64,000 nucleotides of DNA from a virus (Duplodnaviria; Caudoviricetes), in the IMG/VR virus record IMGVR_UViG_3300027969_004220, positions 32,001 through 96,000 of that record, one strand, 5' to 3'. This document shows, one piece after another, positions 2,878 through 45,380 of this stretch. Both the position numbers and the translations under genes were made by a program. Positions within the stretch are counted from its first letter, which is position 1. Each line of letters starts with the position of its first letter. The notes below the pieces were generated by a model that made no database searches, was not told the DNA's origin, and saw nothing but the letters and a program-made list of their open reading frames with translations.

Positions 2878-5622
2878 TTATAATGTTGTTATTGTTACTG
2901 TTGTTCCATTACCATAACTATTATCAGCAACTGCAATATATACAGTATATGATACTAATGCACCACTTATTGTCGTAATTGATAGTGCAGAAGTTCTTTT
3001 TATAAATGCGGTTAGTGTACTTGATACGGTTGGTGGTGGAATCGATTCTGGATAAGGAGTTACTGTTAAAGATGAAAGATCTCCTAATGAAGAAGGATAA
3101 GCAAATACCAATCTTGAACCAGCACCCCCATCATTGGAAGCAAATTTTTGTGCCTTAGTACCAAATTTATAATTTCCAAGTCCTTCCACAATACTTTGAA
3201 GAGTAACTGAATCATATGTATCAACATCTGTTTGAGTAAGACTTATCGAAGCTGATCCAATATTTGCATATCCATAGTAAAATACATTACTAAATGCTAA
3301 TGATGCACTAACTGGTGTACTATCACTTCCAGTTGCCGCAATTACTTGCGAACCAGATACAATTAAACCAGTTTTTGGTTTTGATATTGTTGTAGTATAA
3401 GTAGTACCACTAGATAATCCAGTAGTAGATAAAGTTGCACTAACTTTTGGATATGAACCTGAACTAAATGTATATGATCCAGTTACTGTAGATGGGGTTG
3501 AAAATCCAGTAGTTGCTGCAGGAATACTACTTGTTCCAGTATATTTAACTATACATCCATTAGGCACTGTTACTGAATTCGATGTACTAAATGTACCTAC
3601 TGAAAACGTAGCCATACTTGTTCCAGTACCTTTTATTACAGTCGGTCCAAATAGTGTAGTACCATCAGACTCATATATCTCCCATCTAGAAACAATTGTT
3701 GGAGTAACTAATGCAGTTGCAGCTAAGTCTATTTCAACTTGTTGATTATTTAACTTACCAACTAATCTAGCGGGGTTTTGTTGAGGTAAATCACCTTGAA
3801 AAACCAAATTATATTCAGATAAAAGTAATATTAAGGTTCTATCATATAAATAATTATCAAATACTAAGTTGTATTGTATTGAACTTGTATTAGTATTCAA
3901 ATTATATTGACCCGATAAATTATTCATTGTTATATTAGTTTGTGAAATTCCTCTAAAGTTGATATTTTCATTATAAGAATTCACTATATTTTGACTACCA
4001 ATTCCCTTACCATTAGCAGTATTGTATACATTACCCCATTGAAATGCTTTTATTGGATTATATAATCCAATATCATCTATCCAATAACTAATATTTTGTG
4101 TATTAGTACTTACTATATTTGTACCTCTCTCACTTCTATAAATTATTTTATTAGTAAATCTATCATACTTAATTTCATCATAACTAATATTATAGTTTGG
4201 AGTCGTATAAGAAAGAAGTGTCCATTCTGATAAGGCTAATGAAAAATTATCAAGTGATGCTAATGTATTAACTCCAGAGATATTACTCCAAGCTCTACCA
4301 CCCCAATAAACAACAGAACCGGTTGCGTAGGATGATGAAGGACCCGCCCATATTTTATATCCGGCAACTGTTTGATCATATTTAGGATTATAGAATTTAC
4401 CTTCTCCAACATCATTTAATATTCCTTGTGAATTTGTTGTTAGGTATATTTCTGTACCACCATATAAATCAATATCAGCATCTGTTATTCTATAAGTACT
4501 AGATGATGACAATGTTGACAATCCAGCAAATGCTGTAGCAGTTATAGTAATAACCGGTGTTCCAACTCCAGAAGACCAGCTAAGATTACCAACACCATCT
4601 GTTTTTATAACTTGCCCAGAAGTTCCATCTGATAAAGGTAGTTTATATTGATTATTAATGTCTACTTTACCACCTAAATAAACCGTATCTGCACTATCAA
4701 CTATTAAATCTTGACCACCAATAACAACTGTATTAGATAAACCAGGATCAACTGCTGCTCTAGAAGATGATATAAAAGTAATGTTAGTATTTTCAGTTCG
4801 TGTAGTAAATCCATTATCAATATCAGTAATAAAAATTCCACTATAATCACTCACCAGAGTATTCTTTGAATTTAATAAACCAATAATATTTCCAATTGAT
4901 GTTAAGTAAGTTTCATTATTACCGTTAAATTTTAACTGACCATCTCCACTTATTCCTTTTACATAACCACCATCTTTTATTATTAAATTAGGTGCATAAA
5001 CAGAGTTTGATTGTGTTCCAACAATCTGAGAACCACCAATAATAACACTATTATTAACGGTATTTGAAAATCTTGAACCATCTGATGATATAAATGCAGG
5101 AACTCTATTACCACTTGTTCTCACAGTGGTTGCTGTTGTAAACTCTAAAACATTTGTTACTCCTAATTTTAAATAAGAGTTGTTATTTTGTAATAAAAAT
5201 TGATTTGCACCATAACTTAAACTAATATAAGATGTATTCATTATTACAGATGAACTTAAACCAGTTAGTTGAATAGTATTATCATCCATAGTTAAAGTAG
5301 AACCTGTTATTGAAGATGATAATTGTACATAATTACCATAACTACCATTATTATCTAATCTTAAACTGGCTGATCCACCATTAGATCTTAGACGAGTATT
5401 TAGATCTAAGTATATAGAATTCGTACCGGTTGTTTTACCAATAGATAATGTTTGTGCAAGTGAACCTATTCCACCACCTGATCCAATTGGTGTAATAACA
5501 CCTAAATGATCTTTTTGTGTTAAAACTCCTAATGTATCATATCCAACTACGAATCCACCAATTGAAGAAGGTGTTGCCACAGTTATCATATTTACTCTAC
5601 TCTCAAAAAGAACTAATGCCAT
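2878..5622 (-). CDS. Large virion structural protein (tail fibre/baseplate-associated)
   Basis: 914 aa, Ser/Thr/Gly-rich, LPLSDGTSGQVIKTDGVGNLSW fibre-like motif; co-oriented with the fibre gene. Confidence 0.6.
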   Translation of the reverse strand: MALVLFESRVNMITVATPSSIGGFVVGYDTLGVLTQKDHLGVITPIGSGGGIGSLAQTLSIGKTTGTNSIYLDLNTRLRSNGGSASLRLDNNGSYGNYVQLSSSITGSTLTMDDNTIQLTGLSSSVIMNTSYISLSYGANQFLLQNNNSYLKLGVTNVLEFTTATTVRTSGNRVPAFISSDGSRFSNTVNNSVIIGGSQIVGTQSNSVYAPNLIIKDGGYVKGISGDGQLKFNGNNETYLTSIGNIIGLLNSKNTLVSDYSGIFITDIDNGFTTRTENTNITFISSSRAAVDPGLSNTVVIGGQDLIVDSADTVYLGGKVDINNQYKLPLSDGTSGQVIKTDGVGNLSWSSGVGTPVITITATAFAGLSTLSSSSTYRITDADIDLYGGTEIYLTTNSQGILNDVGEGKFYNPKYDQTVAGYKIWAGPSSSYATGSVVYWGGRAWSNISGVNTLASLDNFSLALSEWTLLSYTTPNYNISYDEIKYDRFTNKIIYRSERGTNIVSTNTQNISYWIDDIGLYNPIKAFQWGNVYNTANGKGIGSQNIVNSYNENINFRGISQTNITMNNLSGQYNLNTNTSSIQYNLVFDNYLYDRTLILLLSEYNLVFQGDLPQQNPARLVGKLNNQQVEIDLAATALVTPTIVSRWEIYESDGTTLFGPTVIKGTGTSMATFSVGTFSTSNSVTVPNGCIVKYTGTSSIPAATTGFSTPSTVTGSYTFSSGSYPKVSATLSTTGLSSGTTYTTTISKPKTGLIVSGSQVIAATGSDSTPVSASLAFSNVFYYGYANIGSASISLTQTDVDTYDSVTLQSIVEGLGNYKFGTKAQKFASNDGGAGSRLVFAYPSSLGDLSSLTVTPYPESIPPPTVSSTLTAFIKRTSALSITTISGALVSYTVYIAVADNSYGNGTTVTITTL

Positions 5623-6806: not shown

Positions 6807-6934
6807 AACTTTTTATTTATTTTATAAGGTATATATAAAAAATTGTCACTATATTTGTACTCAGAAAGAAAAAAAGTTCAAAAATATGAAAAGGAAGAAA
6901 AACTTTTTAATATATAGAACTATAAAACATATAT

Positions 6935-7005
6935 CGCGTTAAAGTGTAAAGGTTGCATGAGACTCTCATAAGGTCTACGGGGTGGTTCGAATCCACGATA
7001 CGCTA
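6935..7005 (+). tRNA. tRNA-Met(CAT)-like, degenerate acceptor stem
   Basis: Anticodon arm AGACT-CTCATAA-GGTCT, T-arm GTGG-TTCGAAT-CCAC; three acceptor mismatches. Confidence 0.55.
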
Positions 7006-7051
7006 CAAAAGAGATAGATAACGATTTAGATACAAGTCTCAAAGAATATAT

Positions 7052-7124
7052 CGCGGGATAGAGCAGTAGGCAGCTCGTGTGGCTCATAACCATAAGGTCG
7101 GAGGTTCGAGTCCTTCTCCCGCTA
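7052..7124 (+). tRNA. tRNA-fMet(CAT)
   Basis: CGCGGGA...TCCCGCTA with unpaired C1, loop CTCATAA, GGTTCGAGTCC. Confidence 0.9.
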
Positions 7125-7152
7125 CTAAAAGAATAAAAAAAGTTAAAAAAGA

Positions 7153-7221: not shown

Positions 7222-7323
7222 ATGACAACAATTACTAACATAACAATAGCTATCGAAGCCATAGGCGGGTATGAAGCGGGGTATACAATACCATCGGTCA
7301 GAAGCGTTATGTGTATAAAGTAA
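7222..7323 (+). CDS. Attenuator leader peptide 1 (Ile/Ala/Glu/Gly/Tyr sensor)
   Basis: MTTITNITIAIEAIGGYEAGYTIPSVRSVMCIK*; codons 9-21 are all I/A/E/G/Y; five ATA codons. Confidence 0.8.
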   Translation: MTTITNITIAIEAIGGYEAGYTIPSVRSVMCIK

Positions 7324-7350
7324 TGAGTTGAAAAAACATTATTATACAAC

Positions 7351-7388
7351 AAACCCAATCTGACGTAAAAATCAGATTGGGTTTTTTT
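7351..7388 (+). terminator. Attenuator terminator 1
   Basis: AAACCCAATCTGA/TCAGATTGGGTTT stem plus T7; its 5' arm TCTGAC can instead pair with leader GTCAGA (7297-7302). Confidence 0.85.
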
Positions 7389-8253: not shown

Positions 8254-8880
8254 ATGTCAAAAAATAAAATAAAGTATCACTTTTTGTATAAAACTACAAA
8301 TTTGATAAATAGTAAGTATTATTATGGAATGCATAGTACCTATAAACTAGATGATGGTTATTTAGGATCTGGTAAAATGTTAAGATACTCAATACGTAAA
8401 TATGGTAAAGAAAATTTTAACATCGAAATTATAGAATTTTTTCCTTCAAGAGAAGATTTAGTAAACGCTGAAATGAATTTGATTACAGAAGAAATGGTAG
8501 TTGATAACAAACTATGTATGAACCTTAAAAAAGGTGGTTTAGGTGGATTTACAAAAGAACAATCTCATAAAGGTGCATTAAGGATGTTAGATATAATATG
8601 GAGTGATAGTGATTTTATAACAAGACACAACGAAAGAAAAAGTAAGCTAATCAAAGAACTATATCTAAGTGGTAAAATAAAAAGATGTGACTGGACTGGT
8701 AGAAAACATAGTAAAGATACTATAGAGAAAATGACTTTATCTAAAAAAGGACAAGGATTAGGAGAATCTAATTCACAATTCGGAACTTGCTGGATAACAA
8801 AAGATGGAGAGAATAAAAAAATAACAAAAGAAAAATTAGAAGACTATTTGATGGATGGTTGGATAAATGGAAGAAAATAA
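8254..8880 (+). CDS. GIY-YIG (Seg-like) free-standing homing endonuclease with NUMOD3 motif
   Basis: FLYKTTNLINSKYYYGMH, YLGSG, GRKHSKDTIEKM; inserted between tRNAs. Confidence 0.85.
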   Translation: MSKNKIKYHFLYKTTNLINSKYYYGMHSTYKLDDGYLGSGKMLRYSIRKYGKENFNIEIIEFFPSREDLVNAEMNLITEEMVVDNKLCMNLKKGGLGGFTKEQSHKGALRMLDIIWSDSDFITRHNERKSKLIKELYLSGKIKRCDWTGRKHSKDTIEKMTLSKKGQGLGESNSQFGTCWITKDGENKKITKEKLEDYLMDGWINGRK

Positions 8881-8881
8881 T

Positions 8882-19193: not shown

Positions 19194-20786
19194 ATGAGTT
19201 TACAAAGACAAATTACTCGAAAATTAGAAAGAGCCATTGCTGATAAAGATTGGACTTCTTTACAAGGTATTCAAAAATACCTAACAAAAATTATTACAAA
19301 ACCAGACAATTTAATTCTTTGCTCTGATGCTTACAAATACTCACACCATAAATTCTATGGTGATGAAATGACCAAAATGGTTTCTTATATGGAATCTCGA
19401 GGTGGTAAATTCTCAGAAACTTTGTTCTATGGTTTACAAATCATTATCAAACAATACTTAGAAGGTATCGCTATTACCAAAGAAGAAGTTGATGAAGCAG
19501 ATGATTACTTAGCATCTAAACTAGGAGTATTCGGTAGAGACGATGTATTCGACCGTTCTAAATTTGATTACATTGTTGATAAATATGATGGTAAATTACC
19601 TATCAGTATTAAAGCAGTTCCAGAGGGAACTGTTGTAAATACAAAGAATGTACTTTTCATCATTGAAAGTTTAGACGAGAAATGTGCTTGGATAACAAAC
19701 TTCTTAGAAAGTATCTTACTTCAAGTTTGGTATCCAATTACTGTTGCCACTCTTTCAAGAGAAGTTAGAAAAATTGTAACCAATTCATTTTTAGATTCTA
19801 CTTCTTATGATGATAAAACAATCAATTTCTTAGTTGATTTTGTTTTAAATGACTTTGGTTTCAGAGGTGTATCTTCTGTACAATCAGCGAAAATTGGTGG
19901 GTCTGCACATCTTGTCAACTTCTTAGGTTCTGACACTGTAATCGCTTCTAAATTGATTAGAGACGTATATAATACTGAACGAATCTACGGATTATCAATT
20001 CCTGCAACCGAACACTCTATTATGACACTTAAAGGCGAAGAAGGAGAGTTAGAACTAATGATGCGAGTTTTAAAAACATTCCCAACTGGATTAGTTGCTT
20101 GTGTATCAGATTCATACAATATCTTTAGAGCTTGTTCTGAATATTGGGGAACTGAGTTAAGAGATTTAGTTCTTTCAAGACCAACAACACCTGGTAATCA
20201 ATTAGTTATTAGACCTGACTCTGGTCACGTTTTAAGAACTTTAAAAGAAATCTTTGATATTCTATTTGATAAGTTTGGTTATACTGTAAATGAAAAAGGT
20301 TATAAAGTTCTTCCACCACAAATTAGAGTAATTCAAGGTGATGGTGTGAATTTAGAATCAATTGGTGAAATCTATATGATGTTAAAATCAGAAGGTATCT
20401 CTCCAGAGAACTTAGCATTGGGTATGGGTGGTAAATTATTACAAGCTGATATAAATCGTGATACAAATAACTTCGCAACCAAAGCATGTTTCGCAATTGT
20501 TGATGGTCAAGAAAGAAATGTAGTTAAATCTCCTACAGAAATGGATGCAGATGGTAACATTACAAAATCTTTCAAAAAATCTAAACAAGGTCGTTTGAAA
20601 CTTGTTAAAAATGATGATGGTACTTACAGAACTGTTACATCAATGGATGCAGACTTTGATACTGTTAAAGATGAGTTAGTTGAAGTATTTAGAATGGGTA
20701 ACATCACAAAAGAGTGGAACTTTGATGAAATTAGACAAAGAGCTGCTGTTTTAGTAGAACAAGAATTAGAAGAATTGATAGCATAA
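19194..20786 (+). CDS. nadV: Nicotinamide phosphoribosyltransferase (NAMPT)
   Basis: SDAYKYSH, DFGFRGVSS, SIPATEHS, VSDSY, VIRPDSG, VIQGDG, KKSKQGRL. Confidence 0.95.
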   Translation: MSLQRQITRKLERAIADKDWTSLQGIQKYLTKIITKPDNLILCSDAYKYSHHKFYGDEMTKMVSYMESRGGKFSETLFYGLQIIIKQYLEGIAITKEEVDEADDYLASKLGVFGRDDVFDRSKFDYIVDKYDGKLPISIKAVPEGTVVNTKNVLFIIESLDEKCAWITNFLESILLQVWYPITVATLSREVRKIVTNSFLDSTSYDDKTINFLVDFVLNDFGFRGVSSVQSAKIGGSAHLVNFLGSDTVIASKLIRDVYNTERIYGLSIPATEHSIMTLKGEEGELELMMRVLKTFPTGLVACVSDSYNIFRACSEYWGTELRDLVLSRPTTPGNQLVIRPDSGHVLRTLKEIFDILFDKFGYTVNEKGYKVLPPQIRVIQGDGVNLESIGEIYMMLKSEGISPENLALGMGGKLLQADINRDTNNFATKACFAIVDGQERNVVKSPTEMDADGNITKSFKKSKQGRLKLVKNDDGTYRTVTSMDADFDTVKDELVEVFRMGNITKEWNFDEIRQRAAVLVEQELEELIA

Positions 20787-25248: not shown

Positions 25249-25428
25249 ATGGCAAATAAAGACAGAAACTTTATAATTAGAATCTCTGAAAAACTATTAG
25301 AAGATTTTCAAGAGTTCTGTGATGATAATTCAATGAATGCTTCTAAAAGAATTAGAAAGTATATTGAGAATGATGTAGAAGCTTGGAAGAAAAGAAAATT
25401 ACAACAACAACAAAATAATCAAAAATAA
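25249..25428 (+). CDS. Ribbon-helix-helix-like DNA-binding protein (not in ORF track)
   Basis: MANKDRNFIIRISEKLLEDFQEFCDDNSMNASKRIRKYIE..., 59 aa. Confidence 0.65.
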   Translation: MANKDRNFIIRISEKLLEDFQEFCDDNSMNASKRIRKYIENDVEAWKKRKLQQQQNNQK

Positions 25429-25537
25429 ATTAGGTACTACAAAATTTATTCGTATCTTTGTCATCTAATAAAAATAAAGATATGTTTATACTAGTCGGGT
25501 ACCTTATTTGGGGCAATAAAGAATAAAAACAAAAAAA

Positions 25538-25621
25538 TTAGGTAGATAAGTAAACTTTTATTACTTTTGTACTATAAAAATAACAAATAAACAAAAAGAG
25601 AGAATAAACTTTTAATATATA
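25538..25621 (+). promoter_or_regulatory. Conserved dual-promoter module of attenuated array 2
   Basis: TTAG-N20-TACTTTTG, then AAACAAAAAG and TAATATATA; near-identical modules at 26717 and 35441. Confidence 0.75.
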
Positions 25622-25626
25622 CAATA

Positions 25627-25731
25627 ATGAAAACAACTAATCTAAATATTAACTTAACGCTGAATGTCTTATGTCTAAGACAAAGACCGGGTTTTGCCTT
25701 ATTTAGAGCAACTGATTTTGATGGTGTGTAA
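25627..25731 (+). CDS. Attenuator leader peptide 2 (Leu/Arg sensor)
   Basis: MKTTNLNINLTLNVLCLRQRPGFALFRATDFDGV*; six Leu codons (CTA, TTA, CTG) and three AGA. Confidence 0.75.
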   Translation: MKTTNLNINLTLNVLCLRQRPGFALFRATDFDGV

Positions 25732-25759
25732 TCATTAAATTCAAACTAAATATACAAAC

Positions 25760-25792
25760 AAAACCCGAAATTTAAAAGTTTCGGGTTTTTTT
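25760..25792 (+). terminator. Attenuator terminator 2
   Basis: AAAACCCGAAA/TTTCGGGTTTT plus T-run; leader CGGGTTTTG (25688-25696) is complementary to CAAAACCCG (25759-25767). Confidence 0.85.
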
Positions 25793-25811
25793 GTGGAAAA
25801 AAATAAATAAT

Positions 25812-25885
25812 GGCCCCGTAGCTCAGCTGGATAGAGCAACTCACTTCTAATGAGTAGGTCACAGGTTCGAATCCTGTCGGGGTCA
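25812..25885 (+). tRNA. tRNA-Arg(TCT)
   Basis: ACTCA-CTTCTAA-TGAGT. Confidence 0.95.
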
Positions 25886-25900
25886 CAAAAATAATCACCT

Positions 25901-25970
25901 GTCGGGGTGGTGGAATGGTAGACACGCAGCACTTAAAATGCTGTGCTCCAGAAGAGTCCCTTTCCCGATA
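25901..25970 (+). pseudogene. tRNA-Leu(TAA) lacking the 5' half of the T-arm
   Basis: D and anticodon arms intact (CAGCA-CTTAAAA-TGCTG); no GGTTCGA. Confidence 0.65.
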
Positions 25971-25978
25971 CAAAAAAT

Positions 25979-26065
25979 GCGTCTGTGGTGAAATTGGTAG
26001 TACACGCTGGGTTTAAGCCCCAGTGGTCAGGAATGATCGTGAGGGTTCGACTCCCTCCAGACGTA
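25979..26065 (+). tRNA. tRNA-Leu(TAA)
   Basis: CTGGG-TTTAAGC-CCCAG, long variable arm. Confidence 0.92.
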
Positions 26066-26074
26066 CAAAAATAT

Positions 26075-26155
26075 GCCTCAGTAGTCCCAGTTGTCTTCTA
26101 AACAACTACGGGTAATTGGAAACTGAAAATGTAGGTTCGAATCCTATCTGGGGTA
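26075..26155 (+). tRNA. Atypical tRNA-Arg(TCT): no D-arm, D-loop-like insert 3' of the anticodon arm
   Basis: GCCTCAG/CTGGGGT, GTTGT-CTTCTAA-ACAAC, GTAGG-TTCGAAT-CCTAT. Confidence 0.6.
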
Positions 26156-26166
26156 CTAATACACAA

Positions 26167-26249
26167 GCCGAGGTGGTGGAATGGTAGACACGCTGGTCTA
26201 AGAAGCCAGTGTCCGAAAGGACGTGCGGGTTCGAGTCCCGCTCTCGGTA
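26167..26249 (+). tRNA. tRNA-Leu(AAG)
   Basis: CTGGT-CTAAGAA-GCCAG, long variable arm. Confidence 0.88.
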
Positions 26250-26251
26250 CA

Positions 26252-26518
26252 ATGAAAGAAATAAATTATATACAGTACACATCATATACATTATTATCAA
26301 GTGGTGGTGTATTTAAGGTAAATTCAGCAATGCCTTTACCGAATTTAGATAAACACTTGAATGAGAGTATAAACTTAATTATGTTTGTAGTTCATAATAT
26401 AAAGTGTAATGATAAAGAAGTAATGTTTTATAATAGAGATCTATTTAGATTGACATATGGATCAAAAGAATGTTCTGAAATGATTATGAAAATGAAACAT
26501 TCACATATATTAGAATAA
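26252..26518 (+). CDS. Hypothetical protein inside tRNA array 2
   Basis: 88 aa, exactly fills the gap between two tRNA-Leu genes. Confidence 0.5.
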
Positions 26519-26519
26519 T

Positions 26520-26601
26520 GTCGGAGTGATGAAATGGTAGACGTGCTTGGCTCAAGACCGAGTGTCCAAAAGACGTGTGGGTTCGAATCCCACCTTCGAT
26601 A
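26520..26601 (+). tRNA. tRNA-Leu(CAA)
   Basis: CTTGG-CTCAAGA-CCGAG. Confidence 0.92.
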
Positions 26602-26609
26602 CAAAATAT

Positions 26610-26696
26610 ACCCCTATGAGCAAATAGGCAAAGCTTGCTGGCTTAGACCCAGTGGAAAACAATGATACATTCTCGGTTCGAGTCCGAGTAGGGGTA
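26610..26696 (+). tRNA. tRNA-Leu(TAG)
   Basis: GCTGG-CTTAGAC-CCAGT. Confidence 0.88.
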
Positions 26697-26716
26697 CAAA
26701 GAAAAATTAAAAAAGA

Positions 26717-26797
26717 TTAGGTAGATTAAAAAACTAATAGTATATTTGTACTATAAATAAAGATAAACAAAAAGGGACAATAAAAATTTAATATATA
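26717..26797 (+). promoter_or_regulatory. Conserved dual-promoter module of attenuated array 3
   Basis: TTAG-N20-TATATTTG ... AAACAAAAAG ... TAATATATA. Confidence 0.75.
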
Positions 26798-26802
26798 ATA
26801 TA

Positions 26803-26892
26803 ATGAAAACAAATACTGTAAATATTAATGTGATTACGATTACGAATTGTGTGAATAGCACGACTTCGGGTAATGAGATATGTATGGTATAA
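26803..26892 (+). CDS. Attenuator leader peptide 3 (Asn/Ile/Val/Cys/Thr sensor)
   Basis: MKTNTVNINVITITNCVNSTTSGNEICMV*; codons 3-18 are all T/N/V/I/C. Confidence 0.8.
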   Translation: MKTNTVNINVITITNCVNSTTSGNEICMV

Positions 26893-26919
26893 AGTTAAAG
26901 TATATTATAATAAATTCAT

Positions 26920-26951
26920 AAAAACCCGAACTCAAAAAGTTTGGGTTTTTT
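26920..26951 (+). terminator. Attenuator terminator 3
   Basis: AAAAACCCGAACT/AGTTTGGGTTTTT; leader TTCGGGT (26865-26871) is complementary to ACCCGAA (26924-26930). Confidence 0.85.
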
Positions 26952-26970
26952 CATGTCAAAAAATAAATAT

Positions 26971-27041
26971 TCTTCTATAGTGAAATGGTATCACGTCTGA
27001 CTGTTAATCAGTTATTCCAGGTTCGAGCCCTGGTGGAAGAG
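26971..27041 (+). tRNA. tRNA-Asn(GTT)
   Basis: CTGA-CTGTTAA-TCAG. Confidence 0.9.
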
Positions 27042-27047
27042 CAAAAT

Positions 27048-27135
27048 TACTGGGTTGCCATAGCCAGGTCGAATGGTTCGGACTGTTAATCCGATGAGCA
27101 TCGCTCCACCGTGGGTTCGAATCCCACCCCAGTAG
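27048..27135 (+). tRNA. tRNA-Asn(GTT) with long variable arm
   Basis: TCGGA-CTGTTAA-TCCGA, variable stem GAGC/GCTC. Confidence 0.8.
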
Positions 27136-27144
27136 CAAATATAT

Positions 27145-27225
27145 TGGCAAATACCAGCCCAACCTGATAAGTTGGAGAACTGTAGTGGTAAGTTGAAAAC
27201 GTGGGTTCGAATCCCACTTTGCCAA
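27145..27225 (+). tRNA. Atypical tRNA-Ile(GAT): no D-arm, D-arm-like hairpin 3' of the anticodon arm
   Basis: TGGCAAA/TTTGCCA, CCAAC-CTGATAA-GTTGG, AACT-GTAGTGGTA-AGTT, GTGGG-TTCGAAT-CCCAC. Confidence 0.6.
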
Positions 27226-27349
27226 CAAAAAAAATAAAATAATAATTATGAAAATGAAAGAGAATTTATTAAATAGTTCGGTTAGTAGTTAAAAAAAGTG
27301 ATAAAAGTGAGTTATAATTTTTTATATATACAATAAATAAAAAACTATA

Positions 27350-27886
27350 ATGGAAAAAGATAAAATGATAGAACTAATCGAGTTAGGTTACTCACAAAGG
27401 AATCTTGCGGAAGAACTAAAAACATCACAATCTAATGTTAAATATTGGTTAAAAAAATTTGAAATAAGTACAAAATATAAAAAAAATAATATAGATAAAC
27501 ATATAATTGATGGTGGTAAAAATTGTCCTAAATGTAATGAGTTAAAAGATGTGGATGACTTTTATAAAAGAAGTAGTATAAATAGAAACGGAACCGCGGG
27601 TTATTGTAAAAAATGTAGTAATATTTATCATGGTGCTAGATTAAAGAAAGTTAAATTAAAAATGATTTTATATAAAGGTGGTAAATGTTGTGATTGTGAA
27701 CTAAACCATGAAAATACACACTATTGTGTTTTTGATTTTCATCACTTAGATCCAAATACTAAAGACCCAAACTTTAATAAAATTAAATATCAAAAATGGG
27801 AAAAAATTAAAGAAGAAATTGATAAATGTGTATTATTGTGTGCGAATTGTCACCGTTTAAGACACTCTGTTATCAGTGGATGGTAA
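27350..27886 (+). CDS. HNH homing endonuclease with N-terminal HTH and Zn-binding motifs
   Basis: CPKC..CKKC; CCDC..FDFHHLDP..KCVLLCANCHRLRH. Confidence 0.85.
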   Translation: MEKDKMIELIELGYSQRNLAEELKTSQSNVKYWLKKFEISTKYKKNNIDKHIIDGGKNCPKCNELKDVDDFYKRSSINRNGTAGYCKKCSNIYHGARLKKVKLKMILYKGGKCCDCELNHENTHYCVFDFHHLDPNTKDPNFNKIKYQKWEKIKEEIDKCVLLCANCHRLRHSVISGW

Positions 27887-27898
27887 ATAAATAAAAAT

Positions 27899-27981
27899 AG
27901 GTCTATGGTGTAATGGCAACATCCTTCTTTTACATGGAAGAGACGTGAAGTATAATCTCGGTTCGAGTCCGAGTAGACCTA
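27899..27981 (+). tRNA. tRNA-Val(TAC), extended variable region
   Basis: CTTCT-TTTACAT-GGAAG. Confidence 0.8.
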
Positions 27982-27987
27982 CATAAT

Positions 27988-28063
27988 GGTTCCTTAGCTC
28001 AGTTGGTTCAGTAGCGTCTGTTTTACACGCAGAAGGTCATAGGTTCGAATCCTATAGGAATCA
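27988..28063 (+). tRNA. tRNA-Val(TAC)
   Basis: TCTGT-TTTACAC-GCAGA. Confidence 0.92.
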
Positions 28064-28069
28064 CAATAT

Positions 28070-28143
28070 TGGTAGTTAGCTCAACTGGTTAGAGCACTTC
28101 GCTGATACCGAAGAGGTTATGGGTTCGACTCCCTTACTACCAA
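28070..28143 (+). tRNA. tRNA-Ile(GAT)
   Basis: CTTCG-CTGATAC-CGAAG. Confidence 0.9.
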
Positions 28144-28151
28144 CAAAAAAT

Positions 28152-28239
28152 GGCATAGTGTCTGAGTGGTCGAAAGATGCGGTCTGCAAAACCGTAATGA
28201 TTAAGTTCATCATCGTAGGTTCAAATCCTACCTATGCTT
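28152..28239 (+). tRNA. tRNA-Cys(GCA) with long variable arm
   Basis: GCGGT-CTGCAAA-ACCGT, U73. Confidence 0.85.
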
Positions 28240-28245
28240 CTAAAT

Positions 28246-28325
28246 GGTTGGTCACTGTAAATGGCTTCACAGTGGGACGGTACGTGGAATTTATTCCTAA
28301 GTGGGTTCGAGACCCACATCAACCT
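28246..28325 (+). ncRNA. tRNA-like RNA without a recognisable anticodon arm
   Basis: GGTTGGT/ATCAACC acceptor, T-arm GTGGG-TTCGAGA-CCCAC, 6-bp CACTGT/ACAGTG hairpin. Confidence 0.5.
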
Positions 28326-28332
28326 CAATAAT

Positions 28333-28406
28333 GGCGCGGTGGCCGAGTGGCACGTAGGCGGTGGATTGCAAACTCACACACACTGGTTCGAATCCAGTCC
28401 GCGCCT
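28333..28406 (+). tRNA. tRNA-Cys(GCA)
   Basis: GGCGCGG/CCGCGCC, loop TTGCAAA, U73. Confidence 0.88.
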
Positions 28407-28413
28407 CGAGACG

Positions 28414-28468
28414 AGACTGTTACTAATTCATAGGGGCCCATACGATGTAAGTGTCTGCGTAGAATTAG
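28414..28468 (+). ncRNA. Repeated pseudoknot-like spacer RNA, copy 1
   Basis: AGACYGTTACTAATTCATAGGG..GTCTGCGTAGAATTAG, also at 36082. Confidence 0.55.
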
Positions 28469-28473
28469 AAAAT

Positions 28474-28546
28474 GCCGATATAGCTCAATAGGTAGAGTGC
28501 CAACTTGGTAGGTTGGAGGTTAAGGGTTCGATTCCCTTTATCGGAT
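28474..28546 (+). tRNA. tRNA-Thr(GGT)
   Basis: CCAAC-TTGGTAG-GTTGG. Confidence 0.88.
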
Positions 28547-28554
28547 CAAATAAT

Positions 28555-28635
28555 GCTGGTGTTGCGTAGTGGCCGATCGCACCTACCTTGTAAGTAGGAA
28601 TTCCAACGTCGCAGGTTCGAATCCTGTCACTAGCT
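28555..28635 (+). tRNA. tRNA-Thr(TGT)
   Basis: CCTAC-CTTGTAA-GTAGG. Confidence 0.88.
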
Positions 28636-28639
28636 CGAC

Positions 28640-28673
28640 AAAAAAGACTTCTTTTAATTAAGAAGTCTTTTTT
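28640..28673 (+). terminator. Terminator ending tRNA array 3
   Basis: AAAAAAGACTTCTT/AAGAAGTCTTTTTT. Confidence 0.8.
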
Positions 28674-28722
28674 ATTTTAAACTAAATCCATATCTTTGTA
28701 TAGAATAATAAATACTACTATT

Positions 28723-29175
28723 ATGAAAGATATAAAACCTCGTTGCTTCGTGGATATGGATGGCGTCCTATGTGATTTTTTCGGAGCATTCTCAGATGTT
28801 CGTAGAAAAGACCCAAACTTTAAATTTCCTCAATCCAGAATAGGGTTCTTCAAAAATCTTGAACCAATACCAGATGCAATTGAGTCTTTTAATAAATTAA
28901 AAGAACATTATGACGTTTGGATTTTAACACGTCCTTCATTTAAAAACATTAGTTGTTTTAACGAGAAAGCTGAATGGGTATTAGAACATTTAGGTTTTGA
29001 TATATTAGAAAAAACGATTATGTGTGGTGATAAATCTTTGGTGAAAGGTGATTACCTTATTGATGATAATGGTCAAAATGGCCAACCTGAATTTGAAGGA
29101 GAATGGATTGAATTTGCTTCAGAATCCTTTCCGGATTGGACTGCGGTTATTGATTATTTAATACCGACTATCTAA
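28723..29175 (+). CDS. 5'(3')-deoxyribonucleotidase (NT5C, HAD)
   Basis: FVDMDGVLCDF, EKAEWV, KSLVKGDYLIDD. Confidence 0.9.
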   Translation: MKDIKPRCFVDMDGVLCDFFGAFSDVRRKDPNFKFPQSRIGFFKNLEPIPDAIESFNKLKEHYDVWILTRPSFKNISCFNEKAEWVLEHLGFDILEKTIMCGDKSLVKGDYLIDDNGQNGQPEFEGEWIEFASESFPDWTAVIDYLIPTI

Positions 29176-29500
29176 GCCACCAATCACCACCTTTTACTTC
29201 TTCAAAGTCTTTAATATCATATTTATACTTATAAACCCAACACTCAATATCTTTTGATGTGTTTATTTTAACTCTTATATACTCATCACCTTCAAACTCA
29301 TCTAGCTCTGGGAATATTGATGGGTCTATAAGATATATATCTCCTAAAACTTCTCCAGGTCCACTTACAAAACCAGGGTAGAATTCATTTACTCTATAAA
29401 TTTTACCTTTAATTGTTGCTCTTCCAAAAAAAACGGGTTTCTTTAGTAAATTTTTGGCAGTATCTCTAAACTGACCATATACAAATAAATATTCTTTCAT
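29168..29500 (-). CDS. Gamma-glutamylcyclotransferase (AIG2-like)
   Basis: LFVYG, YPG, LDEFEG..YIR. Confidence 0.85.
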   Translation of the reverse strand: MKEYLFVYGQFRDTAKNLLKKPVFFGRATIKGKIYRVNEFYPGFVSGPGEVLGDIYLIDPSIFPELDEFEGDEYIRVKINTSKDIECWVYKYKYDIKDFEEVKGGDWWLR

Positions 29501-35528: not shown

Positions 35529-35627
35529 ATGAAAAATGTAAATGTAAATATCGTAGTTATGCCGCAGCCGATGCAGGATCAGGATCGTTTCACGAACCAG
35601 ACTAACTATGTATTTATATCACATTAA
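35529..35627 (+). CDS. Attenuator leader peptide 4 (Met/Pro/Gln/Asp sensor)
   Basis: MKNVNVNIVVMPQPMQDQDRFTNQTNYVFISH*; nine consecutive M/P/Q/D codons. Confidence 0.85.
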   Translation: MKNVNVNIVVMPQPMQDQDRFTNQTNYVFISH

Positions 35628-35650
35628 GAAATTACGTGTATAAAAATTAC

Positions 35651-35685
35651 AAATCCGTTAGTCTTTGAGACTAACGGATTTTTTT
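35651..35685 (+). terminator. Attenuator terminator 4
   Basis: AAATCCGTTAGTCT-TTG-AGACTAACGGATTT plus T-run; leader AGACTAAC (35599-35606) is complementary to GTTAGTCT (35657-35664). Confidence 0.88.
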
Positions 35686-35785: not shown

Positions 35786-35847
35786 GGGACCATGGTTGAA
35801 TGGTTTACAATGCCACCCTGTTGCGGGTTCGAATCCCGTTGATCCCG
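35786..35847 (+). pseudogene. tRNA-Asp-like with the 3' half of the anticodon arm deleted
   Basis: CCACCCTGT is followed directly by T-arm GCGGG-TTCGAAT-CCCGT. Confidence 0.55.
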
Positions 35848-36465: not shown

Positions 36466-36537
36466 GGCGTTGTAGCTCAGAGGCAGAGCGGTCGGTTCAT
36501 ATCCTTCAGGACGGGATCTCGGAATTCCCCAACGCTA
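36466..36537 (+). tRNA. tRNA-Met(CAT), weak anticodon stem and atypical T-loop
   Basis: GGCGTTG/CAACGCT, loop TTCATAT. Confidence 0.6.
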
Positions 36538-43274: not shown

Positions 43275-45380
43275 ATGGAGATAAACAAACAATTACTTAC
43301 GAAAACACTTGACATTAAAGCTTCCTTAGAAGATGATGATGACGATGACTACAACAAATTCGGAGGTGGTAATGGTAAAAAATCTGACACTAAATCTAAA
43401 ACTCCGGTATTAGATACATACAGTCGTGATTTAACTAAATACGCCGAAGAAGGTAAGTTAGATCCAATTGTTGGAAGAGATAAAGAAATTGAAAGAGTTT
43501 CGCAAATTCTTTCCAGAAGAAAGAAAAATAATCCTATGTTACTTGGTGAAGCTGGAGTTGGTAAGTCTTCTATTGCAGAAGGATTAGCACTTAGAATCGC
43601 ACAACGTAAAGTTAGTAGAATCTTATTTGACAAAAGAGTTGTTATGTTAGATCTAGCTTCTATGGTTGCTGGTACTAAATACAGAGGACAATTTGAAGAA
43701 AGAATCAAAGCACTTATGGCAGAGGTTGAAGATGATAAATCTATTATCCTTTTTATTGATGAGATTCATACAATGATTGGTGCCGGTGGATCAAGTGGTT
43801 CTATGGACGCTTCTAATATGTTTAAACCTGCTTTAGCTAGAGGTGAAATACAAATCATTGGTGCAACAACCCTTGATGAATATAGAAAACACGTTGAAAA
43901 AGATGCTGCATTAGAAAGACGTTTCCAAAAAGTAGTTGTTGAACCTGCTACTCCAGAAGAAACTATACAAATCTTAACAAACATAAAAGATAAGTATGAG
44001 TCTCACCACAACGTAACTTACACTGATGAGGCAATTAAAGCTTGTGTTGATCTAACTGTTAGATATATGTCTGACCGACACTTACCAGATAAAGCTATTG
44101 ATGCGTTAGATGAAGCCGGTGCAAGAGTACACATTTCTAACATAGTAGTTCCTAAAGAAATTACTGATGTAGAACAAAAGATCATCGAAATCAAAGAAAA
44201 GAAAAATGATGTAATTAAACGTCAGAAGTACGAAGAAGCAGCTAAATTGAGAGATGTTGAAAAACAATTAAACACTCAATTACAAGTAGCTAAAGAAAGA
44301 TGGGAAGAAGACACGTTGAAAAACAGACAATTAGTAAGTGAAGATAATGTAGCTGAAGTTGTTGCTATGATTACTGGTATTCCAGTTCAAAAAGTAAATC
44401 AAAGTGAAAACAAAAAACTTTCTAAAATGTATGAAAACATTGCTGGTAAAGTTGTTGGGCAAGATGATGCTGTTAAGAAAATCATCAAATCTATCCAGAG
44501 AGGTAGAGTTGGTATGAAAGATCCTAACAAACCAATCTTTAGTGGTATCTTAATTGGTAACTCTGGTGTTGGTAAAACAGAACTTGCAAAACAATTATCT
44601 AAGTATTTATTTGAATCAGAAGATTCTTTAATCAGATTAGATATGTCTGAATATATGGACAAAATCTCTTTAACAAGAATTCAAGGAGCAGCCCCTGGAT
44701 ATGTTGGATATGATGATGCGAATGTTTTAGACAAGATTAGAAGAAAACCTTATTCAGTTATTCTTTTAGATGAGATTGAAAAAGCTCATCCAGATATATT
44801 TAACCTTTTCTTACAAATGTTAGATGAAGGACATATTACAGATTCTCACGGTAGAAAAGTTAGTTTTAAAAACTGTGTAATCTTAATGACTTCAAATGTT
44901 GGTACTAAAGTTGTTAAAGAATTTGGTGCTGGTGTTGGATTCTCTACCAAAACTAAAGAAGATAAAAGAGAAGATGATATAAAAGGTATCTTAGAAAAAG
45001 AGTTGAAGAAAAAATTCGCACCTGAATTTATCAATAGATTAGATGAAATCATTTACTTTAGAGATTTGGGTAAAGAAGAGATAATGAAAATTGTTGACTT
45101 AGAATTAAGAAAAACTTTAGCAAGAGGTTTAGAAATTGGATTTACTTTAGAAGTATCTGATTTATTAAAAGAACATTTAGTTGAGATTGGTTACGACCCT
45201 CAATTTGGTGCTCGACCTTTGAAAAGAGCAATTCAACGAAGTATTGATGATGCAGTAACTGAATTCATTATTGAAAGTGAACCAAAAGAAGGTACTACTT
45301 TAGTACTTGACTATGATGCTGAAAAAGAAGAGACAACAGTCAACTTGAAAAAGAGAAAGAAAACAAAAAAAGAAGAGTAA
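43275..45380 (+). CDS. clpC: ClpC-like AAA+ unfoldase lacking the N-terminal Clp-repeat domain
   Basis: GEAGVGKS and GNSGVGKT Walker A motifs, [14 protein letters not shown]-like middle helix (YEEAAKLRD), VGF loop, GARPLKR. Confidence 0.9.

Follow-up and report, generated by a model that had tools for sequence, protein, structure and literature searches.

What governs the expression of the many tRNA genes that phages carry is, to our knowledge, essentially unknown, and the leader-peptide attenuators that we know of control protein-coding operons. The question is raised here by an element at 26803-26970 of the 64,000-nucleotide stretch of phage DNA that was analyzed (the window), which is part of a virus record of 105,621 bp and in which the element stands ahead of ten tRNA genes. 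We consider it very probable, judging from the sequence, that this element is a ribosome-mediated (leader-peptide) transcription attenuator which gates the phage tRNA operon. An earlier note on this DNA had proposed the same reading, and the computations reported here support it with a short ORF, a codon block and an intrinsic terminator, the 5' arm of which also takes part in an alternative pairing.

The leader ORF (MKTNTVNINVITITNCVNSTTSGNEICMV; 26803-26892, + strand), as listed and translated among the ORFs of the window, comprises 29 codons plus a stop and is located between a promoter-like box and the first tRNA. Its regulatory run, codons 3-18 (26809-26856, + strand), reads ACA AAT ACT GTA AAT ATT AAT GTG ATT ACG ATT ACG AAT TGT GTG AAT and is composed entirely (100%) of codons for T/N/V/I/C, just as the earlier note had described it (16 consecutive codons with ACG twice, GTG twice and TGT, the latter occurring once). 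This is the longest such run in the six frames of the 105,621-bp record, where the runner-up has 12 codons; these five amino acids account for 29.3% of the residues in 88 long ORFs, and the expected number of runs of at least 16 in the record is 0.0003. The same note had cautioned that a shared leader preamble supplies part of the match, and this caveat proved justified since codons 2-9 of the other five leaders contain between 4/8 and 8/8 T/N/V/I. As read from the sequences, the first nine leader codons are a preamble which is common to all leaders and devoid of array-specific information. The array-specific part is codons 10-18 only (VITITNCVN), of which 9/9 belong to T/N/V/I/C, with a chance of 1.6e-5 for nine consecutive codons. 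By plain wobble rules the array's own anticodons can read 21 of the 28 codons of the leader, among them the complete run of 16. Downstream of the run 7 of the 12 codons are also cognate, and these count against an attenuator because stalling there should not help. Some of the codons in the run are rare in this phage, GTG representing 4% of its Val codons and ACG 3% of its Thr codons; more generally, codons of the NNG type make up 23 of the 63 codons (37%) in the windows of six leaders compared to 5.4% in the phage ORFs, an approximately seven-fold excess (p = 9e-14).

The array behind the leader (26971-28636, + strand) contains ten tRNAs, identified with ARAGORN at default settings, Rfam and their structures, in the order Asn, Asn, Ile(gat), an ORF (27350-27886), Val, Val, Ile(gat), Cys, a tRNA-like stretch (28248-28330), Cys, Thr(ggt) and Thr(tgt). 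ARAGORN and Rfam each found ten tRNAs, which cover exactly Asn, Ile, Val, Cys and Thr, and the agreement of the assignable tRNAs with the five amino acids of the leader, as claimed beforehand, is thus recovered by both programs. The tRNA-like stretch at about 28248-28330 was called by neither of the two, and for the ORF inserted in the array (27350-27886) no Pfam family was found. When the region 25400-29200 was compared by blastn to cultured or deposited phages, the matches were only tRNA-sized, with the addition of one flanking gene.

Between the run and the array lies an intrinsic terminator (AAAAACCCGAACTCAAAAAGTTTGGGTTTTTT; 26920-26951, + strand, with the hairpin extending to 26950 and the T-run to 26951), which folds at -14.4 kcal/mol with its tracts and shows one compensatory pair, A-U to G-C, among orthologues. 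A consensus promoter/terminator scan listed neither this + strand terminator nor that of L2, a further leader in the record; for the present attenuator (L3) our guess is that the stem extends into the A and T tracts and thereby violates the scan's tail rule. The 5' arm of the terminator (26924-26933) doubles as the 3' strand of an antiterminator, the 5' strand of which (region 2; 26862-26871, + strand) falls in codons 20-23 of the leader according to ViennaRNA folds and has the core TTCGGGT at 26865-26871. Pairing of this core with ACCCGAA (26924-26930) is part of the minimum free energy fold predicted by ViennaRNA once the 3' arm of the terminator is omitted. The antiterminator as described in the earlier note, TTCGGGT/ACCCGAA plus ATGA/TCAT, is therefore upheld in its main part, while the additional pairing is present in this leader (AUGAG with UUCAU) and, by inspection, missing from the four orthologues which together with this leader form the five-sequence alignment A1. 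Across the five close orthologues 95.5% of cells of the nine antiterminator pairs are paired, and covariation among these sequences is nil, with zero two-sided changes in the nine pairs and 500 out of 500 shuffles reaching the observed score. A competing hairpin, 1:2 (CGAAUUGUGU, with the pairing GCACGA.UUCG; 26843-26868, + strand; -7.7 kcal/mol), appears in the minimum free energy folds of transcripts of 70-118 nt and of the full leader; it has 98% of cells paired in the five orthologues and two pairs changing from G-U to A-U. According to the model this hairpin would tie up the UUCG of the antiterminator whenever codons 14-17 carry no ribosome. The duplex between ORF and terminator arm is specific to each leader, as in a set of 19 leaders the duplex of an ORF with its own terminator arm had a mean of -9.47 kcal/mol versus -6.85 kcal/mol for non-cognate combinations, and none of 20,000 permutations was as good.

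The effect of ribosome position on this switch was addressed by folding with a 30-nt ribosome mask, an equilibrium model in which the readout is the sequestration of the terminator's 5' arm. Sequestration was 73-77% with the A-site at codons 1-15, 67% at codon 16 and 59% at codon 17, before dropping to 20% at codon 18 and to 2-7% over codons 19-24; the antiterminator would, in this model, persist only with a ribosome at or before codon 17. The end of the codon block coincides with the point where the ribosome starts covering the antiterminator strand. The same arrangement is seen across 19 leaders, where cognate codons make up 176 of 266 in the permissive zone and 85 of 275 downstream (odds ratio 4.4). 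It should be noted that equilibrium folding predicts the antiterminator also without any ribosome (74% sequestered), and termination by default is therefore argued on kinetic grounds, from hairpin 1:2 being the first to form. Likewise, once the ribosome has reached the last sense codon or the stop, the mask model has region 2 available again (74%), and the outcome therefore depends on the relative timing of polymerase and ribosome.

In the mechanism that we propose, transcription would begin near the promoter-like box (26717-26757) and a ribosome would translate the 29-codon leader. Should aminoacyl-tRNA for the Asn, Ile, Val, Cys or Thr codons be scarce, the ribosome would stall within codons 3-17, several of the presumptive stall codons (GTG, ACG) being very rare in the genes of the phage. 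The stalled ribosome would open hairpin 1:2 and free UUCGGGU, which could then pair with the newly made ACCCGAA and block the terminator, and RNA polymerase would continue through the array, whose ten tRNAs decode exactly the codons of the leader run. With an adequate supply the ribosome would advance over codons 18-28 and cover UUCGGGU, the terminator would form and transcription would stop at the T-run. The expected result is product feedback, in which the array is made while its own tRNAs are limiting and is off otherwise. The ORF, the match of codons and anticodons, the alternative pairings and the joint variation of leader and array content are observed by sequence analysis; we infer that the ORF is translated, that ribosomes stall on it, that transcription terminates or reads through, and which signal limits the tRNAs in an infected cell.

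The promoter-like region (26717-26757, + strand) shows 79-82% identity to the DNA ahead of three sister leaders of this record. It contains a conserved box, TTAGGTAGAT, at 26717-26726 and TAtaTTTG at 26741-26748, a pattern (TAnnTTTG) which may represent the -7 box of the Bacteroidota; behind it follows an A-rich 5' UTR that ends in TTTAATATATA ahead of the ATG. The region is common to the relatives recovered by pattern search, and a second scan with the promoter pattern detected 31 new loci, 12 of which have tRNAs within 3.5 kb downstream on the fetched stretch. A scan for consensus sigma-70 promoters gave 22 matches versus 16.3 in shuffled sequences and thus little excess. Logan contigs from RNA libraries (three runs labelled metatranscriptomic and one labelled metagenomic RNA-Seq) that are identical to the window correspond to segments of the Leu tRNAs nearby, of the inserted ORF and of the Val tRNAs; these contigs are short and of low depth and cannot show RNA ends or levels. 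The three metatranscriptome runs yielded no Logan contig on 26797-26923, which says nothing for or against transcription.

The element is one of six leader/terminator/array units in the record, and the codon block differs in each of them. Among the sister attenuators, all on the + strand, the one at 25627-25792 has the leader MKTTNLNINLTLNVLCLRQRPGFALFRATDFDGV and a terminator followed by Arg(tct) and four Leu tRNAs, the one at 7222-7388 has the leader MTTITNITIAIEAIGGYEAGYTIPSVRSVMCIK and a terminator followed by Tyr, Glu, Ile(tat), Gly and Ala tRNAs, and the one at 35529-35685 has the leader MKNVNVNIVVMPQPMQDQDRFTNQTNYVFISH and a terminator followed by Gln, Asp and Pro tRNAs. When leaders and arrays of this record, six of each, were permuted, the cognate assignment was the unique best of 720. 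At the amino-acid level it gave 79 cognate codons versus a permutation mean of 33.8 (65 versus 24.2 when the first nine codons were skipped), and at the codon level 78 versus 34.3. The cognate assignment was also the best in three other lineages (1/120, 1/720 and 1/2), related leaders being counted as independent in all of these permutation tests. The correspondence extends to isoacceptors: in the block before the Ile(tat) array three of the four Ile codons are ATA, and the block of L3 before Ile(gat) uses ATT; similarly, the leader before Arg(tct) uses AGA and the block of the Ser leader before Arg(acg) uses CGC.

Comparison to relatives shows how the leaders behave over evolutionary time. 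The reading frame of the leader is without indels in all five sequences of alignment A1, and the block is retained in five close orthologues whose arrays are N/I/V/C/T, with codons 7-18 identical nucleotide for nucleotide. Of six replacements in the run, five either preserve or create a cognate residue (N4T, V6I in two sequences, V6T and S19N), the exception being N4M. The earlier note had suggested looking at the leaders of relatives whose array content has changed, and the attenuator reading survives this comparison, as the leaders of merged or split arrays change along with their arrays. Where arrays are merged (N, I, V, C, T plus L, R, M; G006, G008, W01 and W02), Leu, Arg and Met codons have been added to the N/I/V/C/T block, and where arrays are split the leaders are split too, with YYYEVE before Tyr/Glu and IANGAG before Ile(tat)/Gly/Ala. 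A leader with QQQQQQQ precedes a Gln-only array of four Gln tRNAs, the poly-Gln leader of LR756502.1 being MTTSFQQQQQQQINRTD, and in a further relative an L/S/C leader stands in front of a Leu-Ser-Cys array. The same leader/terminator units were found in the published genomes LR745206.1, LR756502.1, LR756501.1, LR756504.1, LR756500.1 and Lak-B1, and the system is present in published "Mahaphage" genomes of 462-735 kb; in the genomes of 636-735 kb and in Lak-B1 the arrays are partitioned differently and the leaders match. For 45 automatically detected leader/array pairs from nine records, which include two probably false candidates (W01d 1244, which overlaps a tRNA, and W03d 2499), 315 of 491 codons at positions 10-20 were cognate, while shuffled pairs had a mean of 93.1 (sd 15.2, maximum 161) and none of 100,000 reached 315. 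The association has its boundaries: no leader was present in the 520 nt upstream of array W03b, the four tRNAs of the cultured relative Tenacibaculum phage pT24 follow a terminator-like hairpin but no leader ORF was found for them, and tRNA matches were absent from three other cultured relatives, Tenacibaculum phage PTm1, Chryseobacterium phage MA9V-1 and Flavobacterium phage MaF61.

An attenuator of this build need not respond to tRNA abundance. Its natural signal could be amino-acid starvation, i.e., the charging level, in which case the link to tRNA genes would couple tRNA output to the nutritional state without any feedback on tRNA supply. Multivalent leaders such as those of thr and ilv do sense starvation, and stalling reports aminoacyl-tRNA, the product of tRNA amount and charging, two quantities which the sequence cannot separate. 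There is, however, no obvious gain in having extra uncharged tRNA during starvation; moreover, the match at the level of isoacceptors (ATA versus ATT, AGA versus CGC) points to particular tRNA species and wobble-read codons of the array's U34 tRNAs are used, neither of which would be needed for an amino-acid signal, and we regard this explanation as unlikely. A more radical view would be that the short ORFs are untranslated, that each hairpin terminates the unit before it and has a promoter behind it, and that common ancestry and AT-rich composition account for the codon match. Leaders and upstream regions are indeed paralogous, with 79-82% identity, and the preamble is rich in T/N/I/V in every leader, but the terminator sits downstream and not upstream of the promoter-like box and the ORF. 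Further features that make this view very improbable are that, with the preamble left aside, cognate pairing still ranks first among 720 permutations, that leaders track arrays through merges and splits, that NNG codons are seven-fold above composition and that the frame is kept with zero indels.

Two other explanations would leave the ORF or the array out of the switch. T-box elements switch between terminator and antiterminator by tRNA status, and a leader RNA which sensed tRNA directly in the manner of such a riboswitch, or which bound a protein, would make the ORF incidental. We hold this to be extremely unlikely, as the T-box covariance model and those of other riboswitch families gave no match at the gathering threshold in the window and none at E <= 10 in 26700-26975, and blocks with matches to between five and eight amino acids are more than a single specifier could account for. 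Scarcely any weight attaches to the alternative that the short ORFs are functional micro-proteins, or the terminated leader a trans-acting small RNA, with no involvement in the gating of the array. Such roles have a precedent in the rhizobial trpL, for which trans functions of released attenuator RNAs and leader peptides are described (PMC6614838, PMC7298713). Here, the peptides differ almost completely across arrays and lineages, save for matching their array, and a role in trans would add to attenuation and not replace it.

Taking the element as a leader-peptide attenuator which responds to the supply of its own tRNAs, we think it likely that in the Mahaphage clade of huge Bacteroidota phages, gut Lak megaphages included, the whole tRNA complement is organized as self-sensing modules that act as a homeostat of tRNA supply. 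Each array may be gated by a mini-ORF that samples the codons which the array decodes, largely rare NNG codons. The design recurs, re-partitioned, in the largest known phage genomes and in the gut Lak megaphages and thus looks like a clade-wide rule rather than a curiosity of one contig. In a bolder extension, the modules could be alarms that switch on replacement tRNAs upon depletion of host tRNAs, which could follow from host shut-off or from anticodon-nuclease defences. Should the modular reading be true, non-coding RNA genes would here come under leader-peptide attenuation for the first time, and the reading would explain the grouping by amino acid in the tRNA arrays of these phages. The leaders would then also serve as an annotation of the codons served by each array, an aid in the assignment of oddly shaped tRNAs, and would provide compact and modular sensors for the supply of particular tRNAs that could be reused in Bacteroidota or in cell-free systems.

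No account of the system was found in a literature search or in the main texts of the genome papers. In their main texts, the genome papers on relatives count tRNAs (PMC7162821, PMC6784885, PMC8346664) and contain no wording on attenuation, leaders or terminators. The tRNA clusters of T4-like phages, huge phages and Lak megaphages are likewise dense arrays interspersed with small ORFs and homing-endonuclease-like genes. Rfam leader families remained below the gathering threshold in the window, the best in 26700-26975 being Thr_leader (RF00506; 23 bits versus a threshold of 55), a match which covers only 26900-26955, i.e., the terminator. With the T-box the element would share the sensing of tRNA status, the switching between terminator and antiterminator and the control of genes for the translation apparatus; the T-box, however, binds uncharged tRNA via one specifier codon without an ORF or a ribosome. 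The pheST attenuator of E. coli, a leader peptide that controls an aminoacyl-tRNA synthetase operon, would be similar in regulating a component of the translation apparatus via ribosome stalling at cognate codons, but its target is a protein-coding operon, specific to a single amino acid, and not tRNA genes. Close parallels in layout are the multivalent leaders of enterobacterial biosynthetic operons and their single-amino-acid forms, of which thrL contains Thr and Ile codons, ilvL contains Ile, Val and Leu codons, and hisL and pheL are leaders for a single amino acid. These leaders and the phage element have in common a short ORF in which regulatory codons for one amino acid or for several are clustered, the mutually exclusive pairings 1:2, 2:3 and 3:4, an intrinsic terminator ahead of the first regulated gene and a response sharpened by rare codons; the poly-Gln leader of LR756502.1 is moreover reminiscent of the His run in hisL. 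The element differs from these leaders in being phage-borne, in the absence of a Shine-Dalgarno sequence and its Bacteroidota-style promoter box, and in the position of region 2 inside the ORF, seven codons ahead of the stop. Most importantly, the regulated genes are tRNA genes and not genes for enzymes, and the product that is fed back is the tRNA itself; a classical switch thus appears to have been turned onto tRNA genes in a closed loop, in which a slowly read codon would call for more of its tRNA.

The leader ORF MKTNTVNINVITITNCVNSTTSGNEICMV (window 26803-26892, + strand) starts with ATG and has 29 codons, and, as the earlier note had stated, each of its codons 3-18 (26809-26856, + strand) specifies Thr, Asn, Val, Ile or Cys, with ACG and GTG occurring twice each and TGT once. 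The window belongs to a 105,621-bp IMG/VR virus record (G000), in whose 88 long ORFs these five amino acids account for 29.3% of the residues. No other run in the six frames of that record reaches 16 (the runner-up has 12), and 0.0003 runs of this length are expected. The feature is thus real and not due to chance. The same note was right to caution that a shared preamble supplies part of the match: codons 2-9 are T/N/I/V in 4/8 to 8/8 of cases in the five other leaders of the phage, a figure obtained as the difference between two leader-array matrices. Codons 10-18 (VITITNCVN), 9/9 cognate, are the sole part specific to the present leader; nine such codons in succession have a chance of 1.6e-5.

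The preamble, MK(T)xNxNI, is T/N/I/V-rich over codons 2-9 in all six leaders of G000 regardless of array. When a ribosome is stalled within it, the folding model likewise favours read-through, and a shortage of Asn, Ile or Thr tRNA might consequently switch on all the arrays; or the preamble may be no more than a product of common descent or start-site context. Upstream of the leader ORF are a conserved box, TTAGGTAGAT ... TAtaTTTG, and untranslated A-rich sequence. In three relatives' loci, L032 (in record G004), L077 (in G009) and L062, TTTGTA of this promoter box is directly followed by an inserted stretch of ~31 nt that contains an inverted repeat (CTCTGTAATAATACAGAG...); the window lacks it. 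Among assembled RNA-library contigs, which cannot show ends or levels, no metatranscriptome contig lay on the leader.

Downstream of the ORF is a terminator hairpin, AAAAACCCGAAC-TCAAAAA-GTTTGGGTTTTTT (-14.4 kcal/mol), with a T-run ending at 26951. The whole leader region folds with z = -3.4 against shuffles, and the fold of the full leader contains, besides this terminator, an upstream hairpin, 1:2 (26843-26868; -7.7 kcal/mol). When the 3' arm of the terminator was omitted, as if not yet transcribed, the MFE fold paired UUCGGGU (26865-26871; codons 21-23) with ACCCGAA (26924-26930; the 5' arm of the terminator), which bears out the core of the antiterminator that had been proposed; the proposed ATGA/TCAT extension also forms here but, on inspection of the alignment with four orthologues, is not conserved in them.

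Ribosome position was modelled by equilibrium folding with 30 nt masked and the A site placed at every codon successively. The terminator arm was sequestered at 73-77% with the A site at codons 1-15, 67% at codon 16, 59% at codon 17, 20% at codon 18 and 2-7% at codons 19-24, a profile by which the regulatory block stops at the position from which a ribosome would start covering the antiterminator strand. Across 19 leaders, 176/266 codons in the modelled permissive zone were cognate as opposed to 85/275 downstream, and each leader ORF was complementary to its own terminator arm over those of others (mean -9.47 vs -6.85 kcal/mol; 0/20,000 permutations equalled the observed mean). The equilibrium model also gives the antiterminator without a ribosome (74%), and gives it again once the ribosome has reached the stop codon or the sense codon before it; both termination by default and the choice between the two folds would therefore depend on folding order and polymerase-ribosome timing.

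Beginning 20 bases past the T-run, ARAGORN and Rfam identified ten tRNA genes at 26971-28636, in the order Asn, Asn, Ile(gat), Val, Val, Ile(gat), Cys, Cys, Thr(ggt), Thr(tgt), which are exactly the five amino acids named beforehand. Between an Ile and a Val tRNA lies a 178-codon ORF (27350-27886, + strand) with CxxC pairs and, by eye, an HNH-like C-terminus, for which a Pfam search gave no family. Since the two tRNAs are adjacent at this site in relatives G001 and G004, the ORF looks like a mobile insertion. Other arrays are interrupted by similar ORFs, for example at about 8255-8881 of the window. For most amino acids the array holds one ordinary and one long copy, as it does in relatives, the long copies having extended, partly base-paired variable arms although their amino acids normally have short variable loops: Asn 27048-27136 (89 nt), Ile 27133-27226 (94 nt), Val 27899-27982 (84 nt), Cys 28152-28240 (89 nt) and Thr 28555-28636 (82 nt). 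A tRNA-like stretch at about 28248-28330 escaped both ARAGORN and Rfam; four others within the arrays (25901-25970, 26075-26155, 35786-35847 and 36466-36537) scored 31.8-38.1 bits with the Rfam tRNA model and had no default ARAGORN call.

G000 carries six leader/terminator/array units. Leader MRTNSIHTSFSKSFKWFSHKF... is followed by Trp, Lys, Phe and His tRNAs, MKTIITTSSSSSSRSS... by Arg(acg) and four Ser, MTTITNITIAIEAIGGYEAGY... by Tyr, Glu, Ile(tat), Gly and Ala, MKTTNLNINLTLNVLCLRQR... by Arg(tct) and four Leu, the present leader by Asn, Ile(gat), Val, Cys and Thr, and MKNVNVNIVVMPQPMQDQD... by Gln, Asp and Pro; Trp and some Ser tRNAs were seen only with a lowered ARAGORN threshold. Two units lie outside the window, a putative attenuator with a Lys/Phe/His/Trp(/Ser) leader (G000:C1:22382-22554) and another whose poly-Ser and Arg leader immediately precedes Arg(acg) and the four Ser tRNAs (G000:C1:24177-24308). 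Together with two Met tRNAs the six arrays cover all 20 amino acids. The two Met(cat) tRNAs (window 6824-7125, one seen only at the lowered threshold) have a leader-type promoter and 5' UTR but lack the leader ORF block and the terminator; in this phage, attenuation would therefore not act on tRNA-Met.

The cognate assignment is the unique best among the 720 permutations of six leaders and six arrays, with 79 cognate codons at the amino-acid level against a permutation mean of 33.8, 65 against 24.2 when the first nine codons are skipped, and 78 against 34.3 at the codon level under plain wobble rules, two low-score tRNA calls being counted in the set of the first array. The match extends to isoacceptors: ATA provides 3/4 Ile codons in the block before the Ile(tat) array and ATT is used in the present block before Ile(gat), while Arg is encoded by AGA in the Leu leader before Arg(tct) and by CGC in the Ser leader block before Arg(acg). 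NNG codons make up 23/63 (37%) in leader windows and 5.4% in phage ORFs (p = 9e-14); GTG represents 4% of phage Val codons and ACG 3% of phage Thr codons.

For the comparison with relatives that the earlier note had proposed, these were found by promoter-pattern scans of viral contigs and searches of matching records, after which their arrays were retrieved. In the four aligned orthologues (from G001, G004, G009 and the L062 record; G003 has the same sequence as G001) the arrays are N/I/V/C/T and the codon block is kept, with codons 7-18 invariant at every nucleotide and a variable ORF-terminator interval. Of six replacements within the run, five leave the codon cognate or make it so (N4T, V6I in two, V6T and S19N), the exception being N4M. 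A single compensatory pair was seen in the terminator; pairing of the antiterminator holds at 95.5% among these close orthologues, with no covariation.

Where the array is cut differently the leader differs accordingly. In G006 and G010 a merged array (Asn, Asn, Ile, Arg(tct), Ile, Thr, Leu, Cys, (Met), Val, Val, Leu, Leu) follows leader MRTINLNMINVNNTLNTVMVLNTLCIR..., and similar arrays and leaders occur in G008 and two published huge-phage genomes (W01 and W02), where the antiterminator UGAGGGUU with AACCCUCA differs from the present one in both strands. These three genomes place Tyr/Glu and Ile(tat)/Gly/Ala tRNAs under separate leaders, in G008 ...YYYEVE... and ...IANGAG..., respectively. 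In LR756502.1, four Gln tRNAs have a leader of their own, MTTSFQQQQQQQINRTD.

A structural protein of the window shares 63% identity with LR745206.1 (634,780 bp), 58% with LR756502.1 (642,428 bp) and about 30% with LR756501.1, LR756504.1 and LR756500.1, with weak similarity to Lak phages. The five genomes above 634 kb have been assigned to the "Mahaphage" clade, with predicted replication in Bacteroidetes (PMC7162821). The window also encodes a nicotinamide phosphoribosyltransferase, a double AAA ATPase of ClpB-like type and glycosyltransferase domains (19194-20786, 43275-45380 and 49569-51053), auxiliary functions of the sort usual in very large phages. The distant genomes partition their arrays quite differently, with matching leaders. 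Those of LR756504.1 are MKAMILSLCLSLSLSLQK... (Leu, Leu, Ser, Cys, Ser, Ser, Leu, Leu), ...AIVEIAVIGGAEEGV... (Glu, Ala, Ile(tat), Val, Gly, Glu), MKTIAMIIRMRIIRPKMLG (Arg(tct), Ile, Met) and MRTILIIKKKKRD... (four Lys); LR756501.1 has ...IINMIQEQMQQIQ... (Glu, Met, Gln, Ile(tat)) and, found by eye, ...TPAPAVAFRRGTGTGTGTCVPAG... (Arg, Ala, Thr, Val, Gly, Pro); LR756500.1 has ...HIIHIWEHLLEEV... (His, Glu, Val, Trp, Leu) and, also by eye, MKTLSTYPLGQAQTLGTPPITG (Ala, Leu, Pro, Tyr, Gln, Gly, Thr); and Lak-B1 has ...NNIYKNNVDIYADSFNWYEQD... (Trp, Asn, Val, Ala, Tyr, Asp, Gln, Met, Ile) and ...CMHPVCGMIHMFPCGGGR... (His, Pro, Arg, Gly, Cys, Met). No leader was found in the 520 nt upstream of an Ile, Cys, Asp, Asn, Tyr, His array of LR756501.1 or for the four tRNAs of Tenacibaculum phage pT24, and no tRNAs were found in three cultured relatives.

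For a global test, 45 leader/array pairs were detected automatically in nine records (G000, G006, G007, G008, LR745206.1, LR756502.1, LR756501.1, LR756504.1 and LR756500.1); the near-identical G001-G005, G009, G010 and L062 were omitted to reduce redundancy. Candidate ORFs with no tRNA ahead of the next candidate were dropped (including W01c 24-203, W01c 3006-3062, W03d 1459-1500 and the W03c duplicate), and two probable false candidates were retained. At positions 10-20, 315/491 codons were cognate against a shuffled mean of 93.1 (sd 15.2, maximum 161), and 0/100,000 shuffles attained 315. In a curated set of 19 leaders, with five low-score calls removed and two anticodons read by eye added, the odds ratio between an amino acid in codons 10-20 and its tRNA in the array was 41. 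Both tests count related leaders as independent and their p-values therefore overstate the case; the real argument for a leader-array link is the re-partitioned arrays.

The codon match, the modelled alternative pairings and the leaders that track arrays in relatives support the attenuator reading of the earlier note and generalise it. Translation of the leader and every later step are inferred: in the proposed ribosome-mediated attenuation, a sensor ORF would sample the codons decoded by the downstream tRNAs; with any cognate aminoacyl-tRNA scarce, the ribosome would stall in the permissive zone, the antiterminator would form and the array be transcribed, and with sufficient supply the ribosome would cover the 5' antiterminator strand and transcription would stop. 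Rare, wobble-read codons would tune the sensor to the U34 tRNAs of the array in particular. Because the regulated products are tRNAs themselves, the switch would act as product feedback on tRNA supply. Among the matches listed by full-text literature searches, none described tRNA genes under the control of a leader peptide, and the stems "attenuat", "leader" and "terminator" are absent from the main texts of three huge-phage/Lak genome papers. These units offer a possible account of the way in which the largest phages control their set of tRNAs, and the proposal is directly testable. An Rfam covariance-model search placed the leader RNA outside all curated leader families and the T-box family. 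The element would work like the multivalent enterobacterial leaders thrL and ilvL, and its poly-Gln version like hisL.
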